From: a bacterium
Lineage (GTDB): Bacteria > UBA8248
DNA length: 64,000 nt
Direction: 5' to 3'
Assembly: GCA_965219955.1 (NCBI GenBank)
Contig: OZ244799.1
Location: 4,128,001-4,192,000 of the forward strand
Below are positions 10,233-13,432 of the stretch, piece after piece. The notes below the pieces were generated by a model. It saw only the letters and a program-made list of their open reading frames with translations. It searched no databases and was not told the origin of the DNA. Within the stretch, counting starts at the first letter, position 1; the number at the start of each line of letters is the position of its first letter. The translations under genes were made by a program, and so were the position numbers.

Positions 10233-10475
10233 CCGTCATTCCGGCGAAGGCCGGAATCCATTTTCGCCTTTGCCTTTTCACCTCCTCGTTCGGACGTCTT
10301 TACGCCCGGGCGGGGAGGGTCGGAATCGAACACAAAAACGAAAGACGAATTCCTTGGATTCCGCATTCGAACGCCGCGCAACAACAAGGTCGTGGCCGCC
10401 CCGCCCGGTGAAAAGTCAAAATGGATTCCGGGCAATCCCTCCCTCCTCGGTCGGCATTGATTGCCGGAATGACGG
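10233..10475. mobile_element. MITE-like element with CGTC-type terminal hairpins (family A)
   Basis: CGTCATTCCGGCGAAGGCCGGAATCCATTTT ... AAAATGGATTCCGG..CCGGAATGACG; related copies at 26454, 37844 and 56540. Confidence 0.85.
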
Positions 10476-10667
10476 CGGCGGGGCCGGTCTCGATAACGGC
10501 GGGAGGGTTTGCGGTTTTCGTAGGGCTCGGACATATATGTCCGACTGTGTGTTCTCCCGTTTTACCGTGTTTTCGTCCGAGCGTTTGGGGCGATGGGGTG
10601 GACGCCTCCTTCCGGCGGATTAGAATGTGGCGAGACGACGTCACACACCGCCCGGAAGGAGACGACC

Positions 10668-11693
10668 ATGGGAGGAGTCTACATCATCGGGGTCGACTTG
10701 GCGAAACACAGTTTTCAACTCCACGGCGCGTGGGCGGACGGGCGGGTCGCGTTCCGCAAGAAGCTGACGCGGGCGAAGGTGCTGGAGTTTCTGTCGTCGC
10801 AGCCTCGATGCGTGGTGGCGATGGAGGCGTGCGCGAGCGCGCACTACTGGGGGCGCGAGGTCGGCAAGCTCGGCCATGAGGTTCGGCTCATGCCGCCGGT
10901 CTACGTGAAGCCCTACGTGAAGCGCCACAAGAACGACGCGGCGGATGCGGAGGCGATATGCGAGGCGGCCACCCGGGCGACGATGCGCTTCGTGGCGGTG
11001 AAGAGCGAAGCGCAGCAGGGGTGTGGGATGGAGTACCGCACGCGGGATTTGCTGGTGCATCAGCGCACGCAGGCGCGCAACGCGCTGCGCAGCCACCTGG
11101 CGGAGTTCGGGGTCGTCGAGCGGCAAGGGCCCGTGGGCCTCACACGGCTGGCGGCGGCGGTTCGGGGAGCGGAATCGGGCCTGCCCGAGGAGGTCCGGGA
11201 GCTGGGCGAAGTTCTGCTCGCCCAGATTGTCGGCCTCGATGCGAAGGTCCGGGAGTTGACCGGACGGCTCCGGGCGAGCGCATACGCGGACGAGGAGGCG
11301 CGGCGTCTGATGAGCATCCCGGGTGTTGGTCCGATTACGGCGTCGGCGATCCGGGCGTTCGCGCCGCCGGTGGAGAACTTCCGTCGGGGCCGTGACTTCT
11401 CGGCCTGGCTGGGTCTGGTTCCCCGGCAGCACTCCACGGGGGGCAAGCCCCGTCTGGGGGGCATGTCGAAGATGGGCCAGCGCGACGTGAGGCGTCTGTT
11501 GATATCGGGCGCGATGTCGGAGATACGCTGGGCGGGGCGTCGCCGGAAGCCGCCGTGTCCGTGGCTGGCGCGGATGCTGGCGCGCAAGCCGAGGAAGGTG
11601 GTGGCGGTGGCGCTGGCGAACCGGATGGCGCGCATCGCGTGGGCGCTGATGCGGAACAAGGATGTCTACAGGGAGCCGGCGCCCCTCGCCTGA
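10668..11693 (+). CDS. IS110 family transposase (DEDD recombinase)
   Basis: GVDLAK, AMEAC and KNDAAD (DEDD), SIPGVG, and WLGLVPRQHSTGG with the conserved Ser; GGAG RBS. Confidence 0.96.
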   Translation: MGGVYIIGVDLAKHSFQLHGAWADGRVAFRKKLTRAKVLEFLSSQPRCVVAMEACASAHYWGREVGKLGHEVRLMPPVYVKPYVKRHKNDAADAEAICEAATRATMRFVAVKSEAQQGCGMEYRTRDLLVHQRTQARNALRSHLAEFGVVERQGPVGLTRLAAAVRGAESGLPEEVRELGEVLLAQIVGLDAKVRELTGRLRASAYADEEARRLMSIPGVGPITASAIRAFAPPVENFRRGRDFSAWLGLVPRQHSTGGKPRLGGMSKMGQRDVRRLLISGAMSEIRWAGRRRKPPCPWLARMLARKPRKVVAVALANRMARIAWALMRNKDVYREPAPLA

Positions 11694-11960
11694 GCGGCGG
11701 GCGCACGGATAGAGCCGGGAGGAATGTGAGCAGGCCGGAGGAAGGGTAAGGGCAAACGGTCATCGAGACGGGACCGGGAAAACCAGATGCGTGTCCAGAG
11801 CCACCGAGCTCACCAGGTCGATTTGGACCCGGTCCACCTATCTCCATACGGGCCCGCGGCCAGAGTAAAGCGCCGCAACGAAGAGGCCGGATATACGACT
11901 GAGCCGAACCGCTTTGCGCCGAACCCTCCCCAAAAACCGCTTGCATTCTCGTGGGCGTCC
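11694..11960 (+). ncRNA. Putative bridge RNA/seekRNA of the IS1111-type element (boundaries approximate)
   Basis: Non-coding region 3' of the transposase; GGACCGGG..CCCGGTCC stem encloses TGCGTGTCC (11788-11796), the reverse complement of the target flank; ATATACGA matches the circle junction. Confidence 0.7.
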
Positions 11961-12037
11961 ATATACGACTGAGCCGAACCGCTTTGCGCCGAACCCTCCC
12001 CAAAAACCGCTTGCATTCTCGTGGGCGTCCATATACG
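11891..12037 (+). repeat. Perfect 70-bp tandem duplication of the IS right end (2 copies + 7 bp)
   Basis: 11891-11960 is identical to 11961-12030, followed by ATATACG. Confidence 0.97.
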
Positions 12038-12180
12038 GACACGCAGGTCCGCCCCTACACATCGAACCCGATGGAGCAGGACTTTTTCAACAACCCCGCA
12101 TTGGTCGGCGTGCCCCCCGTAGGGACAGGCCTCCGTGCCTGTCCTGACGAAGGACAACCACGGAGGGTTGTCCCTGCAAA
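12038..12180. repeat. GTAG-type REP units flanking the IS
   Basis: GACACGCAGGTCCGCCCCTAC half-hairpin, TTTTTCAACAACCCC, GTAGGGACAGGCCTCCGTGCCTGTCC..GGTTGTCCCTGC. Confidence 0.8.
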
Positions 12181-12223
12181 AAACGCAACATCTATTTTAT
12201 CGGTCGCGATTGCCGCCGCCGGC

Positions 12224-13432
12224 TCAGCCCGTCATCTCCTCGGCCATGTCGGCGATGGCGCGGCCTATCATCAGCGAGGCCGTCGCGCCCGGCGAGGGGG
12301 CGTTGCACACGTGGACGGCGCCCTCGGTCCGGATGATGGAAAAATCATCCAGCAGGCCGCCTTCGCGGTCCACCGCCTGCGCGCGGACGCCCGCGCCCGC
12401 GGGAGCGAGGTCCGATTCGCGGATCTCGGGCATGAGCTTTTGCAGCGCGCGCGTGAAGGCGGACTTGCTGACCGAGCGGACCATCTCACCGAGTCCCGTC
12501 TTCCAGTATTTGAGCGCCAGCCTCAGGAAGCCGGGATACGTCAGGGTTTCGAGCAGATCGTAGGGGTCGACCCGCGTTTTCGTATACCCCTCTCTCATGT
12601 AGGCCAAAACGGCGTTCGGCCCCGCCTCGACGCTCCCGTCCACGCGGCGGGTGAAGTGGACCCCCAGGAAAGGAAACGCCGGGTCGGGGACCGGGTAGAT
12701 CAGGCTCTTCACGAGCGAGCGGCTCCCGGGCGTGAGTTCGTAATACTCGCCCCGGAAGGGCACGATCTTCATCGGCGGCGCCCCGCCTGCGAGTTTGGCG
12801 ATCCTGTCGGCGTAAAGCCCCGCGCAGTTGACGATGAGCTTTCCCCCGAAATCCCCCGCCGTCGTTTCGACGCGCCTTTCTCTTCCCGAGACGGCGATGC
12901 CGGTGACTTCGGCGGACGTCCGGATGCTCTGCCCCGCCCCGGTGACGATGCGGGCGTAGGCGCGCACGACGGCGCCGTAGTCGATGATGCCCGTGGAGGG
13001 CACCCGCAGGGCCTTGACGCCCCGGGCGTGGGGTTCGAACTCGCGGAGTTCCTCCGGCCCCAGAACCGCGATGTTCTCGATGCCGTTCGCCTCGCCACGG
13101 CGGCGTAATTCCTCGAGCCGGGGGATTTCCGCCTCCTCCGTGGCGACGACCACCTTGCCGCAGATTTCGTGGGCTATCCCGTGTTCCCGTGCGAAGCGCA
13201 CCATGGCGGCCGCGCCCTCCACGCAGGTCCTGGCCTTGAGCGAGCCGGGGCGGTAGTAGAGTCCCGCATGGATCACGCCGCTGTTGTGGAGCGATTGGTG
13301 GCGGCCGACGCCGGTTTCTTTCTCGAGGACGAGGACGCGTTTTTCGGGTCGGCGGCGGGTGATCTCCATGGCGGTGGAAAGGCCGAGAATGCCGCCTCCG
13401 ATGACGATGACGTCCCACGTTGTCTGATTCAT
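12224..13432 (-). CDS. lhgO: L-2-hydroxyglutarate oxidase-like FAD oxidoreductase
   Basis: GGGILG, HQSLHNSGVIHAGLYY, PFRGEYY, PFLGVHFTR, AGVRAQA and NAPSPGATAS motifs. Confidence 0.88.
   Translation of the reverse strand: MNQTTWDVIVIGGGILGLSTAMEITRRRPEKRVLVLEKETGVGRHQSLHNSGVIHAGLYYRPGSLKARTCVEGAAAMVRFAREHGIAHEICGKVVVATEEAEIPRLEELRRRGEANGIENIAVLGPEELREFEPHARGVKALRVPSTGIIDYGAVVRAYARIVTGAGQSIRTSAEVTGIAVSGRERRVETTAGDFGGKLIVNCAGLYADRIAKLAGGAPPMKIVPFRGEYYELTPGSRSLVKSLIYPVPDPAFPFLGVHFTRRVDGSVEAGPNAVLAYMREGYTKTRVDPYDLLETLTYPGFLRLALKYWKTGLGEMVRSVSKSAFTRALQKLMPEIRESDLAPAGAGVRAQAVDREGGLLDDFSIIRTEGAVHVCNAPSPGATASLMIGRAIADMAEEMTG

Follow-up and report, generated by a model that had tools for sequence, protein, structure and literature searches.

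The DNA analysed here (hereafter the window) is a 64,000-nt stretch of a bacterial genome of the UBA8248 lineage, i.e., positions 4,128,001 to 4,192,000 on the forward strand of contig OZ244799.1 in assembly GCA_965219955.1. At window positions 10593 to 12037 it carries an insertion sequence (IS), consisting of a transposase gene followed by a long non-coding region, and this element splits a repetitive extragenic palindrome (REP). We read it as a copy of an IS1111-group (IS110-family) element whose RNA-encoded guides target GTAG-type REPs, and we put the probability of this reading at about 0.9. The kind is already known, as REP-targeting IS110/IS1111 elements with guide RNAs have been described (PMC11187229, PMC12288879 and, in excerpt, PMC11208160). 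What is new here is a series of guide alleles inside one genome, a tail duplication at the donor guide, and a pattern of sibling elements targeting one another.

The element and its copies

The left core CG lies at 10591-10592, the element starts with ATGGGG at 10593, and its right end (...GTCCATATACG) closes at 12037. The first-pass annotation of this DNA had set the end at 12060, which takes in 23 nt of flank; the strings it quoted are all found where it had put them when the sequence is read directly.

The transposase matches PF01548 (DEDD_Tnp_IS110, E = 7.8e-14) and PF02371 (Transposase_20, E = 7.7e-23), and it scores 302.5 bits against the NCBIfam equivalog NF033542, 'IS110 family RNA-guided transposase', for which the cut-off is 140. 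Its nearest solved relatives are the transposases of ISCro4 and IS621, and the match to them is distant and covers the C-terminal part only. IS1111 elements are described as having the longer non-coding region 3' of the transposase gene, a transposase of 330-350 aa, and the motif GL-P----S/TG (PMC11187229). Here, the motif reads GLVPRQHSTG, and the non-coding regions measure 75 nt upstream of the gene and 274 nt downstream of it (344 nt in the window copy). We place the element in the IS1111 group because of this motif, its 8-bp subterminal inverted repeats, whose length is within the 7-17 bp of the group, and its short left and long right non-coding ends. A C/G variant position in the inverted repeats switches at both ends together in relatives. 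Insertion is also site-specific, all copies lying in one target class with no target duplication beyond the shared core. Judged by the sequence of its family domains, inverted repeats, non-coding layout, and protein length and motif, the element is a member of the IS110 family and of its IS1111 group, as the first-pass annotation had claimed.

A genome search found eight copies at 98-100% identity, which we letter A (the window copy) to H, and one relative at 79%. The open reading frame (ORF) is intact in all eight, and six of them (B-G) encode identical proteins, which argues for recent activity. Copy A has four private changes: G131H, G181E, I182V, and G188V. The genome also holds a further IS110-family ORF with one in-frame TAG (G000:C1:2634695-2635666) and relics of related elements' non-coding region at 74-77% identity (C1:1860727-1860986 and C1:3812420-3812614).

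Insertion sites in REP hairpins

The window copy is flanked by GGGGCG (10587-10592) and GACACGCAGGTCCGCCCC-TAC (12038-12058). Put together, these flanks make up a hairpin that is also found unbroken at other places in the genome, and the first-pass annotation had restored it by removing the element at the duplicated CG. Of the 15 genomic sites of CGGACACGCA, three mark right junctions of IS copies; the rest mostly carry GGGCG on the left side and GGTCCGCCCCTAC on the right.

Seven of the eight copies lie in GTAG-type REP hairpins, and the remaining one lies in a look-alike. Copies A, B, and C occupy type-1 REPs (loop ACGCAG), left of GACACGCAGGTCCGCCC; copies D, F, G, and H occupy type-2 REPs (loop ATATAT), left of GACATATATGTCCGAC; and the look-alike site of copy E has the right flank ACACGCAGGTG, which is one G short. 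A single composite repeat of ~105 bp, bounded by GTAGGGG and CCCCTAC, contains one hairpin of each type. The type-2 hairpin has six loci in the genome, four of them occupied, and the type-1 right half has 15 sites, three of them occupied. This survey of the other insertions agrees with the earlier claim, made from the window copy, that host REPs are the target.

These hairpins are GTAG-type REPs in the usual sense, i.e., many copies of a short GC-rich hairpin with GTAG/CTAC. GTAG-plus-hairpin sites number 744 in the genome, compared with 141 in a reversed-genome control, and they form several families, of which the targeted one (GGGCGGAC) is minor, with ~35 members. Sites of the form CGGAC-N6-GTCCG number 69, compared with ~12 expected from composition. 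REPs are usually, not universally, associated with a RAYT transposase, and a search for a Y1/RAYT transposase gene gave no PF01797 match in this genome (94% complete), despite its hundreds of GTAG-type REPs. The IS sits in an intergenic stretch dense with REPs of several families (10240-10592 and 12038-12200), among them the commonest REP family of the genome (GTAGGGACAGGCC..., ~250 members genome-wide). REP hairpins also account for weak Rfam microRNA (miRNA) matches at 12103-12172.

The left flank ends in CG in all eight copies, and the right junction has CG in six. The other two, D (C1:694055-695433) and H (C1:4205787-4207168), lie at different loci, carry different guide alleles, and have a right junction with G only (…CCATATA-GGACAT…). 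Loss of the core C beside a type-1 flank is also seen in one RNA-library contig of another study (run X19, window 12036). Among the loci fetched from other genomes (given L numbers, their genomes G numbers), the right-junction core reads GG in L037 and CA in L048, L050, and L053. Junctions that lack the core C may be products of mismatched cores, or they may mark longer-lived copies locked in place by a damaged core.

Target guides and their alleles

Two segments of the non-coding region are candidate target guides. The right one, TGCGTGTCC (11788-11796), is the exact reverse complement of GGACACGCA (12037-12045), so that at its own site the window copy's right guide matches at 9/9 positions. 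We take this match to be beyond chance because a complement to a given 9-mer is expected ~1e-3 times in a 274-nt region, and because the relation is kept across relatives (see below).

Differences among the eight copies point the same way. Their alignment has 35 substitution columns, 29 in the ORF region (nearly all private to A or H) and six in the 274-nt non-coding region. Five of these six fall within the 16 guide nucleotides (11789-11791, plus 11814 and 11818, which differ in B alone), for which the chance probability is 2e-6, or 7.6e-4 if the 3-nt block is counted as one event. At the sixth site, 11774 (T in B), the stem pair is kept as G-U. The only non-coding differences common to several copies are thus guide positions, and the two alleles found there, GCG and ATA, convert the complement of one REP loop into that of the other: the GCG allele is the exact complement of the type-1 flank (GGACACGCA, 9 nt), and the ATA allele that of the type-2 flank (GGACATATAT, 10 nt). 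A copy's own right guide matches the REP type it occupies in six of the eight cases. Fisher's test of guide allele against target type in the eight copies (3/1 vs 1/3) is not significant (one-sided p ~0.24), and the argument from guide alleles rests on the position and nature of the differences, not on this test.

Covariation of guides and flanks in relatives

Homologues of the non-coding region were found in 19 of the 61 genomes searched, the window's own included. The region is present in 16 of 22 other genomes of the same genus and in two of seven genomes of one other family. From the loci fetched, 25 elements could be defined, with 17 distinct guide pairs. For the right guide (the 5'-side loop), the longest exact match to the element's own flank has a mean of 7.2 nt, compared with 3.9 nt in 546 cross pairs. 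For the left guide (the 3'-side loop), the mean is 5.6 nt over the 23 elements with a known left flank, compared with 3.3 nt in 491 cross pairs. Shuffling the flanks, with one representative per guide pair, gave a permutation p <= 1e-4 for both guides. For example, the left guides CCGGGACG, CCGGGCCG, and CCGGGTCG pair with left flanks ending GGGACG, GGGCCG, and GGGTCG, respectively. Misses occur at L028 (guide GGGTCG, flank ending GGGCCG), at L027 and L046 (one right-guide mismatch each), at L033 (two left-guide mismatches), and at L032 (poor match at both sides). These comparisons support the view that the guide segments set targeting, and with the exact complement they sustain what had been claimed for the right guide.

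The same insertion is found at the same locus across species of the genus or family in two sets of elements: L050, L051, and L053 (in G008, G006, and G004) and L033 and L034 (in G042 and G044). Such shared-locus insertions are old, fixed copies whose guides and flanks are drifting apart.

In the seekRNAs of IS1111 elements, the top-strand complement lies 5' of the bottom-strand complement, the reverse of the order in IS110-type elements (PMC11187229). The guide segments here overlap at the core and follow the IS1111 seekRNA order.

Predicted fold of the guide RNA

Both target guides had first been read as lying within one stem structure, and folding the non-coding region keeps them together. 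In a consensus fold of 18 sequences (RNAalifold), they occupy opposite sides of one internal loop, closed below by 11770-11778 / 11828-11837 and above by the hairpin 11798-11801 / 11808-11811, and the donor heptamer described below lies in a separate branch. This branch agrees with a remark in the excerpted PMC11208160 that the donor-binding nucleotides of IS1111 elements are often in a multi-loop. According to the same excerpts, 93% of IS1111 elements have a predicted bridge RNA in their right end, and PMC11187229 places the IS1111 guide RNA 3' of the transposase gene.

The 97-nt target-binding module varies little among the 18 close relatives: 99.3% of 413 cells are paired (15-54% in slid controls), and two pairs change on both sides. 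In an alignment of more distant relatives, 12 of 23 pairs change on both sides, 92.5% of cells pair (18-47% in slid controls), and 0 of 500 shuffles reach the scores. A covariance model of the module (103 positions) gave a full-length match in all 51 of these distant loci, always ~65-90 nt after the ORF. The 51 were taken from 80 loci of a search that gave 567 relatives, most second loci per genome and some short contigs having been dropped by eye; their protein identity is 56-82%, and their records are labelled as several phyla. Together, the model and the alignments show a conserved fold, predicted to bind the target, downstream of the ORF.

The putative donor guide and sibling targeting

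In each of the 25 elements, the heptamer at 11891-11897 is identical to the last five bases of the right end with the core. It comes in five variants (ATATACG, ATGTACG, ATGCACG, ATACACG, and ACATACG), which change at both places together. This covariation supports its role as a putative donor guide, in line with the first-pass annotation, which had matched ATATACGA at 11891 to the circle junction.

Three related genomes carry elements inserted in the donor-guide region of another lineage. L036 in G005 sits in such a region with a 13-nt guide match (AGGCCGGATACAC); the right guide of L035 in G020 is complementary to CGAATGTAC in the other lineage's donor-guide region, where the element sits; and L031 in G018 is sited in the same way, its guide being one base off. 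The nested copies (L036/L052 in G005, L035 in G020, and L031/L054 in G018) lie at, or 2 nt before, the donor heptamer of the different lineage. Two right ends in tandem are seen at L039, L040, and L043.

Promoter geometry and expression

A -35-like hexamer, TTGCAT, at 12011-12016 (also at 11941-11946, in the first of two tail units) is followed after 17 nt by TACG (12034-12037); in a circle, these four bases joined to AT (10593-10594) would give a -10-like hexamer. Across 18 relatives, GCTTGCA does not vary and the spacing stays at 17-18 nt. The geometry of a putative junction promoter is present, as first described.

In a close relative (95% identical, ATA allele), the non-coding region is covered by RNA-library contigs from three runs and two studies, and in runs X18 and X20 the contig continues into the type-2 REP flank. 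This cover is at best a hint of expression, and ORF parts that lack it carry no meaning. Contig joints of the type 'skips 1446' were considered as an empty site at this locus and set aside: their sides are short (39 nt), they read GGG not GGGG, and they may come from paralogous empty REPs.

Table 1. Features of the window copy and its flanks (window coordinates)
Feature	Position	Strand	Remarks
Unoccupied type-2 REP hairpin TCGGACATATATGTCCGA	10527..10544	.	Partner, within the same composite repeat, of the type-1 hairpin that the IS occupies
Left half of split type-1 REP, GGGGCG	10587..10592	+	Ends in left core CG
IS element, window copy (A)	10593..12037	+	1445 bp including right core CG; canonical form in the 7 other copies 1375 bp
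Left subterminal inverted repeat TGGACGCC	10599..10606	+	8 bp, 6 nt inside end; covaries with right repeat in relatives
Resident sigma-70-like promoter candidate TGGACG, 16 nt, TAGAAT	10599..10626	+	Only pattern-scan match; 1 found vs 0.2 expected in shuffles
Transposase / putative bridge recombinase gene	10668..11693	+	341 aa, no internal stop; 4 private amino acid changes vs copies B-G
Target-binding module of guide RNA (predicted)	11758..11854	+	Stems 11758-61/11851-54, 11765-68/11841-44, 11770-78/11828-37, 11783-84/11825-26; inner hairpin 11798-11801/11808-11811
Candidate right-target guide TGCGTGTCC	11788..11796	+	Complements top strand of right flank; 11789-11791 GCG in A-D, ATA in E-H
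Candidate left-target guide CAGGTCG	11814..11820	+	Reads in the same sense as the left flank with the core; GAGGGCG in copy B
Candidate left-donor guide ATATACG	11891..11897	+	Equals last 5 nt of right end plus core
First 70-bp tail unit	11891..11960	+	In all copies; TTGCAT at 11941-11946; inverted repeat copy at 11954-11961
Second 70-bp tail unit	11961..12030	+	Exact duplicate private to window copy; TTGCAT at 12011-12016; ATATACG follows at 12031-12037
Right subterminal inverted repeat GGCGTCCA, outermost end	12024..12031	+	8 bp, 6 nt inside end
Right core CG	12036..12037	+	Sequence reading
Right half of split type-1 REP, GACACGCAGGTCCGCCCC then TAC	12038..12058	+	

Proposed mechanism

We propose that a DEDD/serine recombinase would be directed by a guide RNA (a bridge RNA or seekRNA) from the 3' non-coding region. 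In one internal loop of this RNA, the right-target guide (11788-11796) would pair with the top strand of the right flank and the left-target guide (11814-11820) with the bottom strand at the left flank and core, and a separate heptamer (11891-11897) would read the element's own right end. Recombination at the shared CG core would put the element into the stem of GTAG-type REP hairpins. A promoter formed when the ends join, with its -35 in the right end and its -10 spanning the junction, would drive the transposase and the guide RNA from the excised circle. The guide alleles would suit the two hairpins of one composite REP, ATA serving the ATATAT loop and GCG the ACGCAG loop, and the left-guide allele of one copy would suit the ACGCAG-loop hairpin. 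We infer that the guide RNA is made and bound, that the circle forms, and that its promoter works. That a changed guide would retarget insertion has indirect support from the natural series of alleles.

A number of results weigh against this account. Two copies are mismatched to their sites, D having a GCG guide in a type-2 site and E an ATA guide in a type-1-like site. The window copy's left guide has its only contiguous match to its own site at the core, with further matches at scattered positions. A comparison of the left end with the non-coding region established no right-donor guide: the sole candidate, CTCCATACG (11843-11851), needs a 1-nt bulge, and covariation cannot test it because both it and the left end hardly vary. 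Of the three lineages with a changed left end (ATGGGA), one has a matching change in this candidate, a change by which a predicted stem pair is likewise preserved.

The fold has weak points of its own. The single-sequence fold of 11723-11944 is marginally better than shuffles (z = -1.74), hence our reliance on comparative data, and the distant alignment was fitted to its own covariance model. A scan of 10300-12400 against Rfam 15 (E <= 10) gave only chance matches to miRNA and small nucleolar RNA families, far under their gathering scores, and with no matching family there the fold rests on our own model. As for the promoter, the junction hexamers match the consensus at three (-35) and four (-10) of six positions, and the -35 bases are predicted to pair with 11724-11730 in an outer stem, which leaves two possible causes for their conservation. 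The circle joint (...CCATATACG to ATGGGG...) is not in the assembled contigs, which cannot show absence. Likewise, assembled RNA-library contigs cannot show RNA ends, strand, or level, and DNA carry-over is possible.

The tail duplication

An exact 70-bp tandem repeat occupies 11891-12037 (Tandem Repeats Finder: period 70, 2.1 copies, 100% matches), and ATATACGA at 11891 is the start of its first unit. The duplication is not in the other seven near-identical copies, which have a single unit, nor in the relatives examined. In the canonical element, ATATACG occurs both as donor guide and as right end, at a distance of 70 bp. Unequal exchange or slippage between these two repeats gives exactly the observed structure. 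The same structure would result if a circle inserted at the internal site and one of the two long direct repeats was then lost.

The duplication could thus be plain slippage or unequal exchange between 7-bp direct repeats, or an assembly error, in either case unrelated to the recombinase, and we give this close to an even chance, if slightly under it. The canonical repeats suffice for slippage, and the duplicate is exact, hence recent; short assembled contigs break inside the 70-bp repeat, so they cannot confirm that it exists. It is harder to square with the break points, which fall exactly at the donor guide and at the end of the element, and with the three related genomes in which sibling elements sit at or beside the same internal site. 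Moreover, the internal ATATACG copy is a left-donor-plus-core half site, a class of off-target substrate of IS621 (preprint 10.64898/2026.08.31.748434, in excerpt). Neither the coincidence of break points nor the siting of siblings proves that the recombinase was involved.

How the window copy may have been inserted

The first-pass annotation called the window copy an intact system, and this stands for its ORF and RNA region; as a copy, it is the odd one of the eight, with its private amino acid changes and duplicated tail. It also took the partial match of the left guide as a sign of relaxed specificity. The match is indeed poor, but relaxed specificity is not the sole reading of it, as a B-type guide acting in trans and one-arm insertion would explain it as well.

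According to the first of these readings, the window copy is diverged and possibly crippled, and it was inserted in trans by the RNA of a B-type sister rather than by its own relaxed guide. We regard this as plausible but, on balance, somewhat doubtful. Copy A alone has four amino acid changes, B-G being identical, and it alone has the 70-bp tail duplication. Its left flank, GGGGCG, gives a 5-nt match (GGGCG) to the left guide of copy B, GAGGGCG, and a core-only match to its own CAGGTCG, and uninterrupted type-1 REPs mostly have GGGCG on the left. On the other hand, copy A has an open ORF, and its guide region is intact, as are its two ends and two cores. Its own RNA could also have sufficed, given that IS621 has been shown to insert with one arm ('half-match' insertion), both in a cell-free system and in a re-analysis of in vivo data (preprint 10.64898/2026.08.31.748434, in excerpt). 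The earlier 'relaxed specificity' comes close to this one-arm reading.

That the protein recognises hairpin shape, the guide-like matches being coincidence or captured REP fragments, is very improbable: the preferred targets are all hairpins, copies D and E are in sites unmatched by their own guides, and a target stem-loop adds specificity beyond base pairing according to the excerpted ISPpu10 preprint (10.64898/2026.03.19.712850), but guides change with flanks in 17 distinct guide pairs, including those for non-REP targets such as other IS elements, and the non-coding differences shared among copies fall only in guides, converting one REP loop complement into the other, so structure recognition may supplement RNA guidance but cannot replace it.

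A possible retargeting series within one genome

Returning to RNA guidance, the alleles of the eight copies can be put in order. The ATA allele occurs in a sister species (G011) and is the sole allele in three RNA libraries; the GCG allele was seen only here and in the sequencing run in which this genome is best represented. The two differ by three transitions. A GCG guide on an ATATAT target would form two G-T wobbles and one C-A mismatch, and an ATA guide on an ACGCAG target would form two A-C mismatches and one U-G wobble; copy D agrees with the more tolerant direction, i.e., a GCG guide on an ATATAT target. We infer a series from ATA with CAGGTCG (E-H) to GCG with CAGGTCG (A, C, and D) to GCG with GAGGGCG (B), with ATA as the first allele in guide evolution, because of this allele distribution, the nearly used-up type-2 hairpin, and the transitions with their wobble pairs. 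A clean tree does not come out of the remaining variable sites: copy B has an ancestral-looking T at 11774, and 10955/10958 are common to A and H. We must thus assume that the copies have undergone exchange.

Two readings follow, which we link: stepwise natural retargeting through wobble-capable intermediates, and donor-guide DNA as a recombination hot spot. For the second, every copy contains the internal left-donor half site, the three sibling lineages are aimed at this region and inserted there, and it is where the tail duplication of the window copy begins. Taken together they are tentative, and we consider them unlikely rather than likely. A keyword literature search, which was not thorough, found no paper on guide alleles among copies of one genome or on siblings aimed at the donor-guide region.

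Comparison with known systems

The closest counterparts are the IS1111 seekRNA elements ISEc11, ISPa11, ISKpn4, and ISPst6, which we compared by their published description (Siddiquee et al. 2024, PMC11187229). The element here resembles them in its transposase of 330-350 aa with GL-P----S/TG, its subterminal inverted repeats, and its long non-coding region 3' of the transposase gene. It is also like them in its predicted guide RNA of ~80-100 nt, with the top-strand complement 5' and the segments overlapping at the insertion point. ISPa11 targets REPs as well (PMC11187229 and, in excerpt, PMC11208160). The differences are that the REP families and the host are not the same, and that several guide alleles coexist in one genome here.

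With IS621 and the IS110 group (Durrant et al. 2024, PMC11208160, in excerpt; structures 8wt6), the shared features are an RNA-guided DEDD + serine recombinase, separate RNA loops for target and donor, a 2-nt core common to both, and a circle junction promoter, all of which are seen in or predicted for the element here. Unlike IS621, however, the element matches in the C-terminal part of the protein only (E = 1e-9), has its guide RNA in the right end, not the left, reverses the order of left and right guides, and has the core CG, not CT. Its donor-reading nucleotides also appear in a multi-branch region rather than in a simple internal loop, which the excerpts of PMC11208160 give as typical of IS1111.

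ISPpu9 and ISPpu10 of Pseudomonas putida (PMC12288879; preprint 10.64898/2026.03.19.712850, in excerpt) are likewise IS110-family elements present in multiple copies, all of them in REPs, often in paired units. Their repeated end boxes give rise to modular forms, and some strains have tandem duplicates of the end-flanked ssr9 module. They differ in belonging to the IS110 group, in having an AG core and an upstream guide, and in the nature of the repeated module, which is a small-RNA gene there and the last 70 bp of the element here.

Significance

From the host's side, this is an ordinary IS living in a REP, and it has no obvious influence on the genes around it. Its interest lies in the guide system. 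IS110/IS1111 RNA-guided recombinases are under development as genome editors, and their guide rules come mostly from a few elements in E. coli. This genome is a natural experiment on such rules: its copies are near-identical, their shared non-coding differences lie only in the putative guides, the alleles are paired with REP hairpins, and two copies are mismatched. Testable predictions follow on the tolerance of mismatches and wobbles, on guide RNAs acting in trans, and on one-arm insertion. For the family, our model marks a conserved, predicted target-binding RNA that has no Rfam 15 entry (51/51 relatives searched, labelled as several phyla). If both linked readings of the allele series and the donor-guide DNA are true, bridge-RNA elements would compete with and parasitise each other via their own guide-coding DNA.

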